Below the pieces are notes generated by a model. The model was not told where the DNA came from, made no database searches, and saw only the letters and a program-made list of their open reading frames with translations. Positions 10,449 to 23,623 of a stretch of 28,370 bases of DNA are shown in pieces (position 1 is the first letter of the stretch; every line of letters begins with the position of its first letter). The DNA comes from Candidatus Fervidifonticultor sextus (GTDB taxonomy: Bacteria > Sysuimicrobiota > Sysuimicrobiia > Sysuimicrobiales > Humicultoraceae). The DNA lies in assembly GCA_031459875.1 (NCBI GenBank), contig JAVKHQ010000033.1:1-28370 (forward strand), read 5' to 3'. A program made the position numbers and the translations under genes.

Positions 10449-10624
10449 GACGACCCTTGTTGCTCCCGCGACATCCGCAGCGGGGTCAGGACTCAAGACC
10501 GTCCGGCACCCCGTCCCGCCTGACATAGTATACCGTATCTCCTTGCGGACAGGAGACCGCGAGGACCCGAAGGTTCGGGCAGAGGGAGTACGTGTCTAAA
10601 ACCCCGGCTCTTGGGGACTAATCG

Positions 10625-10708
10625 CCTCTGGAATCCCTTTGCCTCCTCTCCAGCCCCCGACCTGGGGTTCGTCAGCGCCGAGGGATTTGCCGACTACCCG
10701 GCCGGAGG
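10625..10708 (+). promoter_or_regulatory. Structured leader, possibly a degenerate c-di-GMP-II-like element masking the RBS
   Basis: CCTCTGG(10625-31) pairs with CCGGAGG(10702-08, includes the RBS). Inner stem AATCCCT/AGGGATT. ACCCGGCC junction is identical to that of the riboswitch at 15827-15900. Confidence 0.35.
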
Positions 10709-10712
10709 TATG

Positions 10713-11153
10713 GTGTTGAGGAAGACTGCCAACGAGACGGGCCGCAGCGTCATCGAGCTGGTCATGGTCGCCGGCCTGCTGGGCATCCTGGTAACCGGCG
10801 GTCTCTACAGCGTGCGCCGGGCGGCGGCCCGCGAGGAGGCCGACGGCTGGGTCCGGGCCATCGTCTACGACATCGCGGCGGGCCAGCAGGCGGCCATCAC
10901 GCGGCGGACCACGGTCGCTGCCGTATTTCAAGACCGGACCTACGTCATCGCGGCGATCGGGGGAGGGATCATCCGTCAGGACACCCTGCCCGCCCACATG
11001 ACGTTCGGACCGCTCCCCCGGACCCTGACCTTTGACCGACGGGGCATCCCCGCTGGCGATCTCACCGTGAACCTGGCCAGTCCCGCGACGGGGCGGTCGT
11101 ACACGATCACGGTCGAGCCAGAGACCGGGCGCGTGAGCTACCGTGAACCGTAG
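10713..11153 (+). CDS. Type IV minor pilin, FimT/GspH-like
   Basis: Class III signal ETG|RSVIELVMVAGLLGILV; C-terminal LTFDRRG...ITVEPETGRV typical of FimT/GspH. Start is ATG 10710, GTG 10713 or TTG 10716. Confidence 0.8.
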   Translation: MLRKTANETGRSVIELVMVAGLLGILVTGGLYSVRRAAAREEADGWVRAIVYDIAAGQQAAITRRTTVAAVFQDRTYVIAAIGGGIIRQDTLPAHMTFGPLPRTLTFDRRGIPAGDLTVNLASPATGRSYTITVEPETGRVSYREP

Positions 11154-11595
11154 GGACGAAAGCCCCGGGTTCACCCTCATCGAGATCGTCGTCACGCTGG
11201 CGATCCTGGGCCTGGTGGCAACCGGTGTGATGGGCGGGCTGCTGTCTGCGATGGCCGAATCCCGTCGCGGATTCGACCGTGCCCAGGCGGTCGCCTGGGT
11301 GCAGTCTGAATTGGATTTCCTGCGCATCCAGGGGTATGGCATCGCACCGACGGCGACCCCGCGGCGCATTCCCGACCCGACGCATCCGGACAACGATCCC
11401 GCGACCGGGTACCTGCCGAACTACGGAGACCTCGAGGAACCGAGGATCCCCCCGGGCTTCTATCAGGCCGAGGTGGAAGTCAGCGAGGTGTCGGGCCTGC
11501 CGCTCAAACGCCTGGCCGTCCGCCTCTACCAGCGCCCGGGGTCTCCACCCTATACCATCCTGGTGACGTATGTGTCGCGGTTCGAGACCCCCTGA
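11143..11595 (+). CDS. Type IV minor pilin, PilV-like
   Basis: G|FTLIEIVVTLAILGLV N-methylation motif. Confidence 0.88.
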   Translation: MNRRDESPGFTLIEIVVTLAILGLVATGVMGGLLSAMAESRRGFDRAQAVAWVQSELDFLRIQGYGIAPTATPRRIPDPTHPDNDPATGYLPNYGDLEEPRIPPGFYQAEVEVSEVSGLPLKRLAVRLYQRPGSPPYTILVTYVSRFETP

Positions 11596-12268
11596 GGCCC
11601 CCCGCGGCTTCACGCTCGTCGAGGTCCTGGTGGCCGTCGGCGTGATGGTGTTCCTGGTCGGTACCCTCTCGGTCCTGGTCGGGGCCGCGGTCCGGAGCAG
11701 GATGATCGTCGCCGTCCGCTCCGCCGACACCGAGACGGCCCGCCAGACCCTGGAGTGGATGTCCGAGCGCCTTCGCAACGCCGGGCTGAACATCCATCCC
11801 AGCCAGCAGCCGGCGGAGCGCTGCCGCGATATGGTCGTGGCCCTGGTCCCGTCGCTGCGGCCTCGACCCGACCGCGTCTACGTCAGCGGGGAGATCCTGA
11901 ACTCCGACACCATCGCCGGCAACGAGGTCATCACGCTGGGATACTACCTCGAGGGTGGCGCGGTCTGGGAGGTGAGCGGCTCCTGCAACGCCATCTGGGC
12001 GCCGACACCCTCTCGGGTCTCCGACCCGCGGGTGACCGTCACCGACCTGGTGTTCCGATTCTACACGCGCACCGGAACCGAAGTCTCCGTGCCGACCGAC
12101 GACGTGGAGGCTATCCGCAGCATCCGGCTGATCACCATTGCCATCACGGTTCAGGGGCAGGAGGGCCGCTCGGGGATCCAGACCCAAACCTTCACGCGCC
12201 TGGTGGCGCTGCGCAACCCGCGTCCCGATGCCAACGACTGGCTGAGCCCGAGCGAGACCTATCCGTGA
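11570..12268 (+). CDS. Type IV minor pilin, PilW-like
   Basis: RG|FTLVEVLVAV, RLRNAG helix and C-terminal IRLITIAITV...VALRN pattern. Confidence 0.88.
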   Translation: MCRGSRPPEAPRGFTLVEVLVAVGVMVFLVGTLSVLVGAAVRSRMIVAVRSADTETARQTLEWMSERLRNAGLNIHPSQQPAERCRDMVVALVPSLRPRPDRVYVSGEILNSDTIAGNEVITLGYYLEGGAVWEVSGSCNAIWAPTPSRVSDPRVTVTDLVFRFYTRTGTEVSVPTDDVEAIRSIRLITIAITVQGQEGRSGIQTQTFTRLVALRNPRPDANDWLSPSETYP

Positions 12269-13713
12269 GACTCCCCGTGCGGCGCCCCAGGGGCATCTTC
12301 GGTCGGGCGGTCGGGGACTGGCCCGGGCAGGACGGCGCGGCCCTGCTGGCCGTGCTGCTCACCGTCACGCTCATCCTGATCGTGACCGTGGCGGTGATGG
12401 CCATCGTCCAGGCGGACCTGGCCGCCGGCATCCGCCAGCAGCAGGCCGTCCAGGTCTTCAACATCGCCGAGGCCGGCGTGCACCACGCCATCGCCCGCCT
12501 GCAGATCGCCGGAGCCCAGACCTACACGGGAGAGACCATCAGTATGACCGACGGCTCGGCGACCCTCGGCCAGGCCGCCATCGTAGTTGAGTGCCTGGAC
12601 GGGACCAGCCCGTCGGTCAATGCGTGCGCCGGCGCCAACGCCGCGTACCGCCGCGTCCGCTCCACGGGCACGCTGACCGTCACCGGGCCGGTCCGGGTCG
12701 TGACGGCTATCCTGGAAGGGACCACCTCCGTTACCAGCAACTACGCCGTCTGTGGATACGAAGGGGTGACGCTGGACCAGGGCGTCCGGGTCTACGGGGA
12801 CGTGGGCAGCAACGCCAGCATCATGCTGGCCCGAGGAGGTAGCCCCGCGAGGATCTGCGATTCATCGGCCGGTGGCTCGTGCCCGGCCCCCGATCCGCCA
12901 TCCCCGCAGGCCTACTCGGGCAGCGCCTACGCGGTCGGCACCATCACCTGCGGCGGCGCGGCCTGTAACGCGTCGCAGATCGAGGGGACCGTCGCCCCCA
13001 ACCAGCCGGCCGGGTCGGTCTGTCCGCCCGTGGCCCTCGTGCCGCCGTCCCCGCCGGGGGAGACGCCGTTGAACGTTCCGGGCGGAAGCACGGTCACGGT
13101 GGACCCCTCGGTCAACTACGGGGCGGTGACCCTGGCCTCGACGGGCACCGATGTGTGCCCGGCGGACGTCAGCCAGCGGGCCACGCTGGTGATCGATTCC
13201 GGCAGCGACCCCGAGGCCACCGTCACGGTTCGGATGCGCTCGCTCCGGGTGGGCAAGTGCGCCAGGGTGGTGATCCTCGGGACCGGCCGGGTCACCCTGT
13301 GGCTCCTCGAACCGGCGACCTCACCGCCCGAAGCCGCCCGGCAGGCCCTCAAGGCGGAGCAACTTTCCGTCTTCGGATCGACGAGTGCGGGCGCCACCCC
13401 GACCCCCATCGCCGGAGGCCGGTTCACCGTCAACGTCCTCTCGTCGAAACCCCTGGAGGATCCCGGGGACTGCCTGGACGGGACGGCAGCGTGTCCGGCG
13501 GTGCAGTTCAACCAGTCGGGGATGATCGCCGCGACCTTCGTCGTGCCCAACGGTGGGTTCAAACTGGATCAGGCCCAGCTGACCACAGGGGCGATCCTCG
13601 CCGGCCGGGTGCGGCTCGACCGCGGGTCCACCTTCACGTGGGACGCGTCGTCGCGCACGACCCCCGGCGTCTACGGGAACTTCACCCGGCTGAAGGCGTG
13701 GAAGGACCAGTAG
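12265..13713 (+). CDS. Large PilX/ComZ-like minor pilin with Cys-rich C-terminal domain
   Basis: DG|AALLAVLLTVTLIL (no E5, as in PilX), FNIAEAGV motif, 12 Cys, ends AWKDQ. GTGA coupling at 12265; the track's 5' extension is an artefact. Confidence 0.82.
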   Translation: MRLPVRRPRGIFGRAVGDWPGQDGAALLAVLLTVTLILIVTVAVMAIVQADLAAGIRQQQAVQVFNIAEAGVHHAIARLQIAGAQTYTGETISMTDGSATLGQAAIVVECLDGTSPSVNACAGANAAYRRVRSTGTLTVTGPVRVVTAILEGTTSVTSNYAVCGYEGVTLDQGVRVYGDVGSNASIMLARGGSPARICDSSAGGSCPAPDPPSPQAYSGSAYAVGTITCGGAACNASQIEGTVAPNQPAGSVCPPVALVPPSPPGETPLNVPGGSTVTVDPSVNYGAVTLASTGTDVCPADVSQRATLVIDSGSDPEATVTVRMRSLRVGKCARVVILGTGRVTLWLLEPATSPPEAARQALKAEQLSVFGSTSAGATPTPIAGGRFTVNVLSSKPLEDPGDCLDGTAACPAVQFNQSGMIAATFVVPNGGFKLDQAQLTTGAILAGRVRLDRGSTFTWDASSRTTPGVYGNFTRLKAWKDQ

Positions 13714-16561: not shown

Positions 16562-17738
16562 CGGGGACCAGCAGCGCGAGACTGGCCGTGAACCCGTGCA
16601 CATAGGGCTGGGTGCCGACCGGGCCGATCTCCCCGTTGCAGAAGACCCCGGCCAGGGGAATCGGCCCCAGGTGGTCCTCGACCGCCTTCACATCGTGGTG
16701 CGGCCGGCCAAACATACCGATTCCCCGCCCGTTGCACGAACAGAGGAGGGCGGCCAGAGGTCGCAACTGGCCGAGGTCCGCCTTCGTCCGGTCGAGGAGG
16801 TCATTGAGGTCCTCGGCGGCGGCCGCCGGGTCCCGCACCTGGAACTGGAGGGTCTGGCCGACCCGCGGGATGGCGCCGACGGCCAGGGCGCCGGTCTCGG
16901 GGATGACGCCGATCAGGTTGCGGATCAGAAAGTCGCCGCGGCGCAGTTCCTCGCGGCGCTCATCGATGGCCAGCCCGACCAGCAGGTTTCCCCGCGCGCG
17001 GGCCTGGAGGCGCGGCGGCAGTCCCCGCAGCGTCTCGATGAGTACGTCATAGGCCGGCCGTTGGCCGATGGTCTCGACGAGGTTCCCCTGGGCGCCGGTG
17101 ATGGTCCACGGCCGGCCGATGGGCGCGGCTCCCTGAGAGACCACCGTCTTCATCCGGTAGGGACCGCCGACCGCCAGCAGCACGGCCCCGCGATCGAAGA
17201 CGCGATCGTCAAGGAAGACGTGGGTCGTCTGTCGCAATGGATTCCCCGACGCCAGCCCGCCCACCAGCGGGATGCCCGGGTAGGCCGCCGACAGTGAGGC
17301 GAGCAGGTGGTCGGCGTCCAGCGTGTAGGGATCGGCCCAGATCAGCCAGCCCCGCAGGGCATCCGGCGCCACGCCGGTGAACCGGTGCCACACCAGGGCG
17401 CCGCCGAGGCGCTCCAGCTCGTCCTGGGTGAGGTGGCTGGCCCGCAGGGTCGCGCCTGGCAGCGCCAGCACCAGCAGCGCCAGCGCGGGGTCACCTTCGA
17501 TCTCCTCCCCGGGCCCGATCACGCCCTGCCCGGAGCATCCGACCAGGAGCCGCGCGCCTACCGCATCCCGGACCGCGGCCACCAGAGACGGGAACTCGGC
17601 GGCGTAGGCGCTGCTGGCGAAGAGGATCGCCAGGTCCGCCCCGCCGTCGGCGCGTGGGAAGAGGCGGAGCCGGTGGATGAGAGCGTCCAGCGCCTCGCGC
17701 CAGTCCGGATCTGCGACGATGGCGGCCGCGGCTGTCAC
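16554..17738 (-). CDS. FIST N/C-domain sensory protein (NosP-like family)
   Basis: LVGCSGQGVIG, PLVGGLASG, VSQGAAPIG, FLIRNLIG, GQTLQFQVRD, CSCNGRG, GVFCNGEIGP, HGFTAS. Confidence 0.92.
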   Translation of the reverse strand: MTAAAAIVADPDWREALDALIHRLRLFPRADGGADLAILFASSAYAAEFPSLVAAVRDAVGARLLVGCSGQGVIGPGEEIEGDPALALLVLALPGATLRASHLTQDELERLGGALVWHRFTGVAPDALRGWLIWADPYTLDADHLLASLSAAYPGIPLVGGLASGNPLRQTTHVFLDDRVFDRGAVLLAVGGPYRMKTVVSQGAAPIGRPWTITGAQGNLVETIGQRPAYDVLIETLRGLPPRLQARARGNLLVGLAIDERREELRRGDFLIRNLIGVIPETGALAVGAIPRVGQTLQFQVRDPAAAAEDLNDLLDRTKADLGQLRPLAALLCSCNGRGIGMFGRPHHDVKAVEDHLGPIPLAGVFCNGEIGPVGTQPYVHGFTASLALLVPDG

Positions 17739-17873
17739 GTCAGGCCTACCTTTCGCTGGGGATTCATCCGGCTCCTCCGGGTTCCCCCGGGCGCAGGCGA
17801 CGACCCGGAGGGTGGGGCAGGACCAAGGATTCCAGACGTGCTTTCTCTAAACAGTTCCGCACAGGGAGGAATC

Positions 17874-18787
17874 GTGCTGAACCGTTCCGAGCAGGGGTGC
17901 CTGGTCATAGCGGATGTCTCCGGCTACACGGGGTACCTGGCAGGCACCGAACTCGATCACGCACAGGACCTCCTGGCCGACCTGATCGGCACCGTCGTCG
18001 GCGCCTTCCAACCCGTGCTGCGCCTGGCCAAACTTGAGGGCGATGCGGCGTTCGCCTACGCGCCGTCCGACCGAGTGGACGGGACGATGCTCCTCGATAC
18101 GATTGAGGGCCGCTATTTCGCCTTCCGCCGACGCCTCCGCGACATCCGCCATGCCACCACCTGCCAGTGCAACGCCTGCCGGATGATCCCCTTGCTGGAC
18201 CTCAAGTTCCTCGCCCATGACGGGACGTTCATCCGGCAGCGCATTGCAGGCCGGGAGGAACTGGCCGGCCCGGACGTGATCCTGGTCCACCGGCTGCTGA
18301 AAAACTCCGTGACCGAGGCCCTGGGCGTACGCGGCTATGCCGTGTTCACCCCAGCGTGCGTGGCGACCATAGGCATCGATCCGCTGTCCCTTGGGATGCG
18401 CCAGCACAGCGAGACCTATGAGCATATGGGCAACGTGACGGGGTATGTTCAGGACCCGGAGCGGCGGTGGCGCGAGGAGCAGGAGCACCGACGCGTCGTC
18501 GTGGAGCCCGGGGACGCGGTCCTCGTCATAGACTTTGCGTTCCCGGCTCCGCCGCCGGTGGTCTGGGAGTATCTGACGGTCGAACTCGAGCCGGCGGCGA
18601 TGGGACGAGGCTGCAGTGGCGCGTGCAGCGTTTCCGAAGCCGGGCCCAGCGCGAGAAGTGGCCGGCGATGGCTGAGATGCTCCAGCAGGCCTATCGCGCG
18701 GGGGCGGCGCGGCTGGCGGCACTCCTGGCCGAGGAGACGGCGCGGCGCGCCCGGGATGCCGAAGGAGCAGCGCATCCACCATCGTGA
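17874..18787 (+). pseudogene. DUF2652 (nucleotide-cyclase-like)-SRPBCC fusion, frameshifted and apparently internally deleted
   Basis: GGGAGGA RBS then GTG; IADVSGYT, KLEGDA, CQCNAC, LDLKFLAH, HRLLKN. SRPBCC start (PAPPPVVWEYLT) jumps to VELEP, and the natural continuation GDGTRLQWRV...LAALL lies in another frame from about 18593. Confidence 0.72.
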
Positions 18788-18947
18788 CGTCGCATTCGCG
18801 TGCAGGTGCCTTGCGTTGCTCAACAGAAAACCGCCTCCAGGGGTCGAAACGGGCCTGTGCGACTAAAACCGGGGCATGGTGGGTACCTGGAACGATCGGG
18901 ACACGCACGCTGCCACAGCCAGTTCCCCTGCCGGAGGGGACGGATCA

Positions 18948-19217
18948 ATGCAGGATCAAATCGCGGCCGACGTTGCCCGCGTCCTGGCCGCCCTCCTTGA
19001 GCACAAGGCGTGGTTCCGCCACGGCCTGACCGACGCCCGCCTGTGCGAGGTGACCGGGCTGACCCTTACCCAGGTCGTCGCCGCCCGCCGCGAGGCGTAC
19101 CTGCTGGGCCTGGTGGAGCGGCGCGGGACGGGGACGGAGCAGGCGGTCACGATGCTGACGCCCCGCGGCGTCGCGCTGGCCCAGAAGCTGAGCCCACCCG
19201 TCCAGTCGTCGGATTGA
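18948..19217 (+). CDS. Small winged-helix DNA-binding-like protein
   Basis: GGAGGGG RBS; LTDARLCEVTGLTLTQVVAA...LGLVER...LTPRG resembles a MarR-like wHTH. Confidence 0.65.
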   Translation: MQDQIAADVARVLAALLEHKAWFRHGLTDARLCEVTGLTLTQVVAARREAYLLGLVERRGTGTEQAVTMLTPRGVALAQKLSPPVQSSD

Positions 19218-21229: not shown

Positions 21230-21398
21230 GGGACCTCCGGCCTCCTCCGCTCGGCCTCTGCCTGCATTCTACCTCCGCAGCAGGAGGACTAGGCCGATTG
21301 CCACCGGGGGAATATACCCTCCGGTCTGCTCGCGCCAGCCACGCGGGCCAGCACGCCGCCGGAGTCCGGCAGTCGTCTCCATCAGAGGGGGGAGAGCC

Positions 21399-21665
21399 AT
21401 GGCCAAGCAGGTGCAACTCCGCGTTTCCGTCAGGGACGCCGCGGGCAACCTGACCGTCATCGACGCCACCGGGTACGTCAACGAGCCGCCGGTGATCGAG
21501 AACGTCATTATCGATCCGCCCGTGGTCCTCGCGGGTAAGGTGGCTCGGGTGACCATCATCGCTCGAGATCCCGAGAACGAGCCCCTGTCCTTCGAGGTGA
21601 CCGCCAGCGAGGGGACCATCGAGCCGACCGACCAGCCCAACGTCTTCCTCTGGCGCGCGGCCTAG
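21399..21665 (+). CDS. 88-aa Ig-like (PKD/cadherin-like) protein without signal peptide, apparently circularly permuted
   Basis: GAGGGGGGAG RBS; MAKQVQLRVSVRDAAGN...NEPPVI...ARDPENEPLSF...LWRAA. Confidence 0.75.
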   Translation: MAKQVQLRVSVRDAAGNLTVIDATGYVNEPPVIENVIIDPPVVLAGKVARVTIIARDPENEPLSFEVTASEGTIEPTDQPNVFLWRAA

Positions 21666-21679
21666 CCTGCGTGGTCGGC

Positions 21680-23623
21680 ATGGCTGAACTGCGGGTCACC
21701 GTCCGGAACCGCTCCGGTTGCCAGGCCCACCACACCATCATGGTGGAAGTGGGCGAGGCGGCGGGACGGCCTGCCGGCGGGCCCGAGGACCGCCCCCCTC
21801 AGCGCAGGGTCCGCCTGGGCCAGATCCTGCTGGAGGCGGGGATCATTACCCAGGCGCAGCTGAAGGACGCCCTGACCGAGCAGCAGAAGACCGGGGAGCG
21901 GATCGGGGTGGTCATCCAGCGCCTGGGCCTGGGATCCCAGGAGGGCGTCGCCCGGGCGCTGGCCCAGCAGCTTGGCCTCGAGTTCGTTCGGCTCGGCGAG
22001 GTCACACTGGACGAGGCCACGCTCCTGCGCGTGCCGAAGGAACTGGCGCGCCGATTTCAGGTCATCCCCCTGCGCGTCGACGAACGCCAGATGCTGCTGG
22101 GGATGGTGGATCCCCTCGACATCCTCGCCGTCGACGACCTCCGGCGGCTGACCGGCCTGGAGGTCGCGGTCGCCGTCATGACTCCCGACGACTTCCAGCG
22201 GGCGCTCAGCCAGTACCCCACCGTGGAGGGCTCCGTCAGCGAGCTGATCCAGCAGATCGGCGAGCCTGCGGCTCCGGGGGAAGAGCCGCCGACGGACCGT
22301 CTCCGGGATCTGACGGAGGAGGCGCCGGTCATCCGGCTGGTCAACCTCATCATCCTCCAGGCCGTCAGACAGGGCGCCAGCGACATCCACATCGAGCCCC
22401 AGGACCGGGTGGTCCGGGTGCGCTACCGGCTCGACGGCCACCTCCACGCCGCCATGAGCCCGCCCCGCCACGTGTACCAGGCACTGATCTCCCGGATCAA
22501 GATCATGGCGCACATGAACATCGCGGACCGCCGCGTGCCGCAGGACGGCCGTATCGACCTCAAGGTGGACGGCCGCGACATCAGCTTCCGCGTGTCCACG
22601 ACCCCGACCGTCTTCGGCGAGAAGGCCGTCCTGCGGATTTTGGACAAGCGCAACGCCCTGGTCGGGGTCGACCGCCTCGGCCTGGCACCCCATGACGCGC
22701 GGAGCCTGGAGCAGATGATCTCCCGGCCGCACGGGATCATCCTGGTGACGGGTCCGACGGGGAGCGGGAAGACGACCACCCTGTACGCCATCCTTAACCG
22801 GCTCAACCGACCCGAGGTGAACATCCTGACCATCGAAGATCCCGTAGAGTACCAGCACGACGGGATCGCCCAGGTGCAGGTCAATCCCAAGGCCGGCCTG
22901 ACCTTCGCCAGCGGCCTGCGGGCCTTCCTGCGGCAGGATCCGGACATCATCATGGTCGGCGAGATCCGCGACGAGGAGACGGCGCGGATCGCCATCCACG
23001 CGGCCCTGACCGGCCACCTGGTGCTCTCCACGCTGCACACCAACGACGCGCCGTCGGCGGTCACGAGGCTGGTGGACATGGGCATCGAGCCCTTCCTGGT
23101 CTCCTCGTCGCTCGTCGGCGTGGTGGCCCAGCGTCTGGTGCGGGTCCTGTGCGAGCGCTGTCGCGAGCCCTACCACCCGCTGCCGGAGGTGCTGACGACA
23201 CTGGGCGTGACCGCGGCGGGCCACGGGACGTTCTACCGGCCGGTGGGGTGTGCGGCGTGCAGCCACACCGGCTACCGGGGGCGGGTCGGCATCTTCGAGA
23301 TCCTGACGGTGGACGAATCCATCAAGGCGCTCATTGTCCGCCACGCAACCGACCGGGAGATCCGGGTTGCGGCCCGCTCGGCCGGGATGCGCACCCTGCA
23401 GGAGGACGGCCTTGCGAAGGTCGCCAGCGGCACCACCTCGCTGGAGGAGATCCTCCGCACCGTCTTCGTTGAGGGGGACCTGGCGCCCGCCCGAACCCTC
23501 GGAACCGACGCGGTCCGTCCGGAGCCTGGTGCCGGCAGCGAGCCCTCCGCTGATGGTGGCCAGCCCTCCGCAGATGGCGACGGGCCGGTCGGGCTGATAC
23601 CCGCCGGCCGCCCGGCTATCTGA
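21680..23623 (+). CDS. pilB: Type IV pilus assembly ATPase (PilB/GspE family) with N-terminal MshEN motif
   Basis: RLGQILLEAGIITQAQLKDALTEQ-x5-RIG..., ASDIHIEP, GPTGSGKT, TIEDPVE, RQDPDIIMVGEIRD, LSTLHTND, CERC...CAAC zinc site. Start ATG 21680 or GTG 21671. Confidence 0.93.
   Translation: MAELRVTVRNRSGCQAHHTIMVEVGEAAGRPAGGPEDRPPQRRVRLGQILLEAGIITQAQLKDALTEQQKTGERIGVVIQRLGLGSQEGVARALAQQLGLEFVRLGEVTLDEATLLRVPKELARRFQVIPLRVDERQMLLGMVDPLDILAVDDLRRLTGLEVAVAVMTPDDFQRALSQYPTVEGSVSELIQQIGEPAAPGEEPPTDRLRDLTEEAPVIRLVNLIILQAVRQGASDIHIEPQDRVVRVRYRLDGHLHAAMSPPRHVYQALISRIKIMAHMNIADRRVPQDGRIDLKVDGRDISFRVSTTPTVFGEKAVLRILDKRNALVGVDRLGLAPHDARSLEQMISRPHGIILVTGPTGSGKTTTLYAILNRLNRPEVNILTIEDPVEYQHDGIAQVQVNPKAGLTFASGLRAFLRQDPDIIMVGEIRDEETARIAIHAALTGHLVLSTLHTNDAPSAVTRLVDMGIEPFLVSSSLVGVVAQRLVRVLCERCREPYHPLPEVLTTLGVTAAGHGTFYRPVGCAACSHTGYRGRVGIFEILTVDESIKALIVRHATDREIRVAARSAGMRTLQEDGLAKVASGTTSLEEILRTVFVEGDLAPARTLGTDAVRPEPGAGSEPSADGGQPSADGDGPVGLIPAGRPAI
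23540..23581 (+). repeat. Two-copy 21-bp tandem repeat in the PilB tail (EPSADGG/QPSADGD)
   Basis: GAGCCCTCCGCTGATGGTGGC followed by CAGCCCTCCGCAGATGGCGAC. Confidence 0.75.

Follow-up and report, generated by a model that had tools for sequence, protein, structure and literature searches.

In the window, meaning the whole stretch of 28,370 nucleotides that was analysed, the gene for a protein of 88 amino acids (P0001) and the pilB gene behind it divide one Ig-like repeat between them. They are separate genes with complementary halves, the halves fall into the register of a single domain, and the two genes occur together in related genomes. By computation, the division of the repeat and the hairpin tag of PilB are real and well supported, while self-chaining of the small protein and completion of its fold by the PilB hairpin are predicted from structure models. 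We hold with moderate confidence that the products form a cytoplasmic head-to-tail chain of hairpin donors, in which a PilB of the c-di-GMP type caps the groove end. Taken singly, complementation of the small protein by PilB in trans is judged very probable, and self-association of the subunit likely. The features concerned are listed in Table 1.

Table 1. Features of the small gene and pilB, in window coordinates.
Feature	Position	Strand	Basis
Bipartite promoter-like element GACTA-N17-GGAATATAC, putative function	21287..21317	+	20/38 distinct upstream regions
Shine-Dalgarno (SD) site of the small gene, strong	21385..21394	+	anti-SD duplex -11.6 kcal/mol
P0001, permuted PKD/Big_9-type subunit, 88 aa	21399..21665	+	ATG 21399, TAG 21665
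Subunit donor hairpin, residues 1-27, with strands 3-12 and 18-27	21399..21479	+	secondary structure, three-copy model
Acceptor body, residues 28-88, Ig-like domain minus last two strands	21480..21662	+	profile columns 1-59, fold alignment
Kept stop codon and variable spacer	21663..21679	+	stop in 41/41 distinct copies
Hairpin-tagged PilB/GspE-family ATPase, 647 aa	21680..23623	+	TIGR02533, TIGR02538, PF00437
PilB donor hairpin, residues 1-24	21680..21751	+	V8, G13 invariant in 37/37
Pro/Ala/Arg-rich linker of variable length, hairpin to MshEN	21752..21811	+	MshEN start varies among relatives
MshEN c-di-GMP-binding tandem motif, residues 45-97	21812..21970	+	NF053729 53 bits, cut-off 38
ATPase domain, residues 212-593	22313..23458	+	PF00437 E 3.9e-146

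Sequence searches with P0001 in Pfam, NCBIfam and the PDB gave no family. A family profile of the small protein had 2469 protein matches at E 0.001, and the best of these were long proteins of tandem repeats, in which the match often spanned the junction of two repeats; PKD or Big_9 domains were present in the 16 long repeat proteins scanned. The top match of this profile in the PDB was a PKD domain (E 0.1), and divergent family members matched PF17963 (E 4e-5 and 3.5e-4). For a natural-repeat profile, 172 tandem repeat units of 71 proteins were cut from 149 family-profile matches. Residues 28-87 of P0001 align with columns 1-59 of this profile (40.1 bits) and residues 3-16 with columns 65-78, and PilB residues 3-26 align with columns 68-91; both hairpins thereby fall on the two final strands. 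On their own, the hairpin matches to the natural-repeat profile are weak (3.6 bits for P0001, 6.2 bits for PilB). When the hairpins were joined to the body and compared with shuffles, an equally high score was obtained in 4 of 500 cases for the subunit and in 1 of 500 for PilB, and with two control peptides the alignment stayed at or before column 63. Because of the profile register and the shuffle test, we read the small protein as a repeat cut in the loop ahead of its last two strands, so that the hairpin comes first, and PilB as opening with the missing piece; P0001 then corresponds to the last two strands of repeat n followed by the first strands of repeat n+1. A reading of the DNA made from the letters alone (hereafter the sequence-only reading) had proposed both a PKD-type repeat with its last hairpin placed first and a homologous hairpin ahead of MshEN in PilB, and the two proposals, like its translation of the 88-aa ORF, were borne out.

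Within one P0001 chain the Big_9/PKD sandwich is not complete, as the stop codon precedes the last two strands. The distance from the turn Asp of the hairpin to the next Asn is 15 residues in P0001 and 15-21 (mode 17) in most natural repeats. D-x-D-x-D is present in 146 of the 172 natural repeats, and the same site reads D-P-E in all 37 small-gene copies compared. The last strand carries V-V-V in PilB, as in natural repeats, and A/T-G-V/I in the hairpin of the subunit, of which G25 is nearly invariant. By hydropathy, neither the small protein nor PilB of any of the 37 pairs shows a long apolar stretch within its first 35 residues: runs without charged, amide or Pro residues extend to at most 10 residues in the former and 7 in the latter. 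To the extent that hydropathy can tell, this agrees with the earlier statement that neither protein has a signal peptide.

Among all loci fetched, 41 distinct copies of the small gene could be parsed, near-duplicates counted in. All of them stop at the same point (TAG in 18, TGA in 17, TAA in 6), and 38 encode 88 aa. A hairpin ORF with its own start follows in 37 copies; the remaining four are that of genome G012 and three near-identical metagenome copies. The window's pilB ATG lies 14 nt past the small-gene stop and in a different frame. Over the 37 pairs, the spacer ranges from -1 to 97 nt and is 0 in eight, stop and start are at most 1 nt apart in 13, and pilB starts in frame with the small gene in 14 and out of frame in 23. 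In contigs from 4 runs, all belonging to one study, the junction is spanned with no indel; one contig variant shows four substitutions in the spacer, none of them in the stop among the rows listed. Divergence of the small gene decreases from codon position 3 over 1 to 2 (0.45/0.25/0.12), and third positions also diverge most in the PilB hairpin. The sequence-only reading had kept as its alternative a single Ig-PilB fusion broken at the junction. The 14 in-frame spacers would suit such a fusion, be it with a sequencing error, a frameshift or stop read-through, but the use of all three stop codons, the 23 out-of-frame starts, spacers of up to 97 nt, the contigs free of indels and a loop that would be about 5 residues shorter than the natural one if read in frame all speak against it. 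This candidate was rejected, and its probability is negligible.

An AlphaFold2 model of the monomer (14 rows) reached a pLDDT of 88 and a pTM of 0.63, with hairpin and body built and the groove strand 62-70 unpaired. Compared with solved Ig folds, only the range 28-88 of this model aligned (best Z 5.6), and Foldseek returned no match at E 0.001. Residues 4-88 of an Atlas model align linearly with tandem Big_9/PKD proteins (TM 0.70). Three copies modelled with ESMFold2 scored 0.56, the best of 3 controls 0.00; this exceeds the mark of the test, which is approximate for the present case and was attained by 20 of 30 solved pairs but also by 1 of 23 single chains. Contacts agreed to at least 98% between runs at a partner pLDDT of at least 86. 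In the model, residues 28-72 and 85-88 accept the neighbour's hairpin, of which residues 2 and 5-30 contact the body; the partner's own body is not listed, and residues left off the contact list are uncertain, not necessarily free. Strand 5-11 pairs with strand 63-71 of the next copy, G25 packs on W85, and two donor strands (residues 5-30) are inserted, not one. Ring closure was not confident in the three-copy model, which fits an open head-to-tail chain, three copies being too few to tell a filament from a larger ring. The pass may reflect only likeness to solved tandem PKD proteins, since predictors can join halves that resemble them.

A read-through model from eight in-frame relatives, in which the stop was replaced by X and the PilB hairpin was tethered, has the PilB strands formed and the hairpin paired with strand 63-69. 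Its range 27-118 matches whole PKD/Ig domains (Z up to 10.2, rmsd 2.8 over 89 residues), and the tethered PilB hairpin is predicted to complete a PKD-like fold. The proposal of a fold completed by a hairpin given in trans thus gains computational support from the junction geometry, the open monomer, the three-copy and tethered models, and the co-occurrence and co-loss described below. As to head-to-tail chaining capped by PilB, entry of the hairpin into the groove of the next copy held in the homo-oligomer model, and completion of the fold by the PilB hairpin held for a tethered chain only.

The tagged PilB scores 653 bits with TIGR02533, above the cut-off of that model, and 636 bits with TIGR02538, below its cut-off. 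The HMMs lean slightly to GspE; tagged relatives lie in pilB-pilT-pilC-pilin operons, and the window's copy stands alone. It is the second pilB of its genome, an untagged one being located on contig C1. The Walker A/B, Asp box, His box and Cys motifs read as intact. A motor of the c-di-GMP type, as proposed earlier, is indicated by its match to the MshEN motif (Table 1), which was defined in PMC5013675 (accessible text), and the genome has 6 GGDEF matches over cut-off. Among relatives, the MshEN motif begins at residues 39-83 where located, and the hairpin is conserved while the adjoining linker is not. A quick tree of PilB, the base of which is open, places some untagged labels within tagged groups; two of these are G021 (a real loss) and L088 (cut by a contig end), and L092 is a long branch. 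In L093 (G017; 11031-12338), the frame of the tagged pilB stops at about 436 aa with the remainder in another frame, either a break or an assembly error, and a similar split was seen in L032.

The promoter-like element occurs upstream of stand-alone copies only, none of the 20 regions belonging to a core pilus operon. Its consensus in the window and 19 related upstream regions is G(A/T)CTA-N16-17-GG(C/A/T)ATATA(C/T), with the upstream half read by eye. It looks like an alternative-sigma promoter, and we take it to resemble the SigB/SigF types. A gene for a sigma-70-family protein with regions 2-4 was noted near the core pilus operon. The anti-SD duplex of pilB is weak (-2.2 kcal/mol) against that of the small gene, and the small-gene SD is the stronger one in 37 of 37 pairs, which suggests that the subunit is made in excess. 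Stops and starts at most 1 nt apart in 13 of 37 pairs suggest coupled, near-stoichiometric synthesis.

The small gene was found in 17 of the 94 genomes of the class, which are also all genomes of the phylum-level search, and all 17 belong to the window's family (34 genomes). Named homologues carry the label Armatimonadota and one CSP1-3. Hairpin-PilB is present in 16 of the 34 family genomes, every one among the 17 with the small gene, and PilB-like genes occur in 33 of 34. As the hairpin profile was built from small-gene neighbours and related genomes are not independent, the informative part of this tally is the absence of the hairpin from the other 18 family genomes; the unpublished genome G013 and G022 are counted as genomes without the pair. 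Among the genomes searched, the system of hairpin-PilB and small gene is limited to one family.

Two gene settings were observed. The pair lies either inside a merR-DUF6812-[small]-pilB-pilT-pilC-pilin operon or, as in the window, apart from it under its own promoter-like element, in many cases close to nadE and groEL. In G021 (92% complete), DUF6812 is directly followed by a PilB with linker and without small gene and hairpin, both of which are present in the sister sequence of this PilB. The co-loss amounts to one deletion, the DNA of gene and hairpin being adjacent, and it shows that the module is dispensable for PilB. In G012 (97% complete), the small gene is intact, no tagged partner was found for it, and the ORF behind it is presumably protease-like. 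The window's genome yielded no second tagged ORF, no second acceptor-type ORF and no cap gene. Divergent permuted proteins (P0158, P0207, P0208) have 41-56% identity; no true locus of P0158 was found among the genome contigs.

We propose that the small protein would act as a plug-and-socket subunit, its socket being the Ig-like body minus two strands and its plug those two strands at the N-terminus, joined by an ordinary repeat junction. The plug would fill the socket of another copy; it could not fold back on its own socket, because the junction of 15 residues leaves no spare linker. Copies would join head to tail, giving a polar rod with Ig domains as beads, and PilB would cap the socket end of the chain, since it carries a plug only. 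Each chain would then have one client at the socket end, and its opposite end would present an unoccupied plug. The product would be a non-covalent [PKD]n-PilB of variable length, attached within the cytoplasm to a pilus motor of the c-di-GMP type, with a flexible linker from the PilB plug to the MshEN motif. We infer a cytoplasmic location and an excess of the subunit, as well as tighter binding of the PilB plug, which should out-compete the subunit's own because it has full-sized core residues instead of A/T-G-V/I. Most likely, the rod would serve as a tether or spacer by which the motor is positioned, clustered or restrained.

The same plug and socket might also work without a long chain, as a closed ring or short oligomer opened by strand exchange with PilB, or as a one-bead adaptor with its free hairpin on another partner. 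This would suit the 13 pairs with closely spaced stop and start and the search of the window's genome, in which no cap gene was found, and the small core residues and short junction could bend or weaken a chain. Nevertheless, the three-copy model gave no confident ring closure, the search of this genome yielded a single acceptor-type gene, G012 keeps its small gene without a tagged partner, and the SD asymmetry favours excess subunit, so we consider a chain-free arrangement unlikely, though it deserves serious attention. A monomer that is circularly permuted, completes itself and ignores the PilB peptide, which the sequence-only reading had named as a possible outcome, agrees with the high monomer pLDDT and would require a linker for folding back that is not there; the unpaired groove strand at a pTM of 0.63 and the linear alignment of the Atlas model with tandem repeat proteins also speak against it, and it is highly improbable.

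That the pair is a vestige, an old Ig-repeat-PilB fusion decayed to two genes with halves no longer interdependent, is suggested by the spacers of 0, which look like a fission point, and by the loss of the module in G021 and of the tagged pilB in G012. A decayed pair would hardly keep 88 aa in 38 of 41 copies, third positions that diverge most in both gene and hairpin, a conserved hairpin next to a linker that is not, and an SD site and promoter-like element of its own, and we give this explanation very little credence. PKD/Big_9 repeats are usually extracellular, and the genes lie in or near pilus clusters, as would fit an extracellular fibre built by donor strands, which the pilus machine would export after recognising the PilB hairpin as a hook in the cytoplasm. 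BsaA of Clostridium perfringens is a pilus-associated donor-strand matrix polymer according to the accessible text of PMC11580942; its signal sequence is cut by SipW, whereas the N-terminus of the small protein resembles neither a signal sequence nor a prepilin. Together with D-P-E in place of the D-x-D-x-D of natural repeats, this makes an extracellular fibre scarcely probable here.

Hairpin completion itself is already known: in the Tuc2009 phage baseplate, the C-terminal beta-hairpin of BppU completes domain 2 of BppA (PMC4742702, accessible text). By analogy, this appears to be the nearest solved joint, in that a hairpin of about 25 residues completes the beta-sandwich of another protein, the Tuc2009 composite resembling a titin domain. 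According to the same text, the Tuc2009 joint is virion-borne, has a C-terminal donor and fixes two different proteins, whereas the system here would have an N-terminal donor, an acceptor with its own donor and a cellular ATPase as client. Donor-strand filaments, i.e., chaperone-usher pili, the archaeal cannulae/TasA superfamily (PMC12518558) and BsaA (PMC11580942), share the N-terminal donor that fills the next groove to give a polar non-covalent polymer, and in cannulae a conserved donor glycine matters too, as described in the accessible parts of these reports. There, however, a single strand is donated by secreted, extracellular proteins that depend on chaperone and usher, signal peptidase or a calcium trigger. 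Here, an incomplete Ig fold with an N-terminal donor entering the next subunit is likewise found in the model, but with two strands, the PKD/Big_9 family, no export signal (hydropathy in 37/37) and an ATPase cap; no chaperone, usher or dedicated signal peptidase was found among the recurring neighbours of 36 loci.

Completion of an Ig domain in trans within the cytoplasm is also described from muscle, for obscurin-like-1 Ig3 and the myomesin linker, which form a mechanically strong joint (about 135 pN); in the accessible text of PMC5222588 this is a eukaryotic heterodimer in which strand A is replaced, without a self-chaining subunit. Tandem Big_9/PKD/cadherin-like proteins (PF17963, PF00801, PF18911, PF22352) have the same repeat sequence, with the profile spanning junctions, but their repeats are covalent in one chain, while here a single junction makes up an entire gene. 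PilB/MshE ATPases of the MshEN type (PMC5013675, accessible text) share the c-di-GMP motif over cut-off and differ from the present PilB by its Ig hairpin ahead of MshEN and a partner predicted to bind by fold completion. In the literature searched, mostly outside subscription papers and with supplements set aside, no cytoplasmic bacterial polymer of hairpin-donor Ig domains was found, none that is self-chaining and capped by a motor, and no such PilB extension, and the donor-strand polymers found in print are extracellular.

If the proposal is true, a cytoplasmic polymer of 88-residue subunits with a pilus ATPase as cap would represent a novel means of placing or regulating the motor of type IV pili, and a single cut plus an added start codon would have turned a repeat protein into a self-assembling rod. 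The subunit should be easy to test, as it is small, has no cysteine and stems from a hot-spring metagenome, and a heat-stable tag/catcher pair might be made from the hairpin and the socket. PilZ/FimX and Hfq are accessory proteins of PilB, and a small partner on the motor is proposed here as well. A wider picture, which we offer tentatively and think somewhat more likely wrong than right, is a bacterial Ig filament that assembles itself in the cytoplasm, with a hairpin of 24 residues as a portable tag by which any protein that gains it (PilB, once a glycosyltransferase) is loaded at the socket end, with groove-only caps at the other end, and with up to six rods per PilB hexamer that set where or when pili are built.

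A search for tagged clients gave 17 matches, namely 16 full PilB/GspE-type proteins and one 109-aa N-terminal piece of PilB; with 8000 scored candidates, it supports an absence of other clients weakly. Two weak hairpin matches outside the family were noted (E 0.002-0.004). In G004, a family-2 glycosyltransferase opens with a PilB-type hairpin (E 2.4e-6 before it joined the profile), and the hairpin was seen in none of 5 close orthologues; this single case may be a recent accident. The gene (L133 3312-4970, minus strand, G004:C31) encodes a cellulose-synthase-like GT2 protein, with a GH26 gene behind it.

Groove-only homologues, most of which have a basic tail, are present in G017, G042, G013 (two copies; an unpublished genome) and two metagenome contigs, where they lie near a permuted gene and minor pilins. 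They are possible chain caps or anchors. For those of G013 and G042 no donor was found, and these donorless genes are left unexplained by the plug-and-socket model. The groove-only homologues of L016, L017, L018, L021 and L026 (5600-6001, minus strand) as well as P0209 and P0210 end in F-L-W-H, and most have an Arg-rich tail.

Further observations concern the surroundings of these loci. A merR-type HTH gene and DUF6812 precede pilB in every core operon mapped with that stretch, with or without the small gene (e.g., L040 5689-5928); DUF6812 is unlabelled in two loci. In L026-L030, a divergent permuted subunit of 95-96 aa adjoins a minor-pilin cluster, and the gene behind it is not pilB but encodes a protein whose N-terminus is signal-like. 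The window has a minor-pilin-like cluster at 10611-13713 (+), about 8 kb upstream of the pair, with FimT-, PilW- and PilX-like genes by comparison with related loci. A small helix-turn-helix-like protein with a W-F-R-H-G-L motif, for which no clear Pfam family was found, recurs near these loci (window 18876-19217, plus strand; L026 468-782, minus strand). In the DUF2652 gene at 17307-18866 (+) of the window, the C-terminal part reads as degenerate or frameshifted.
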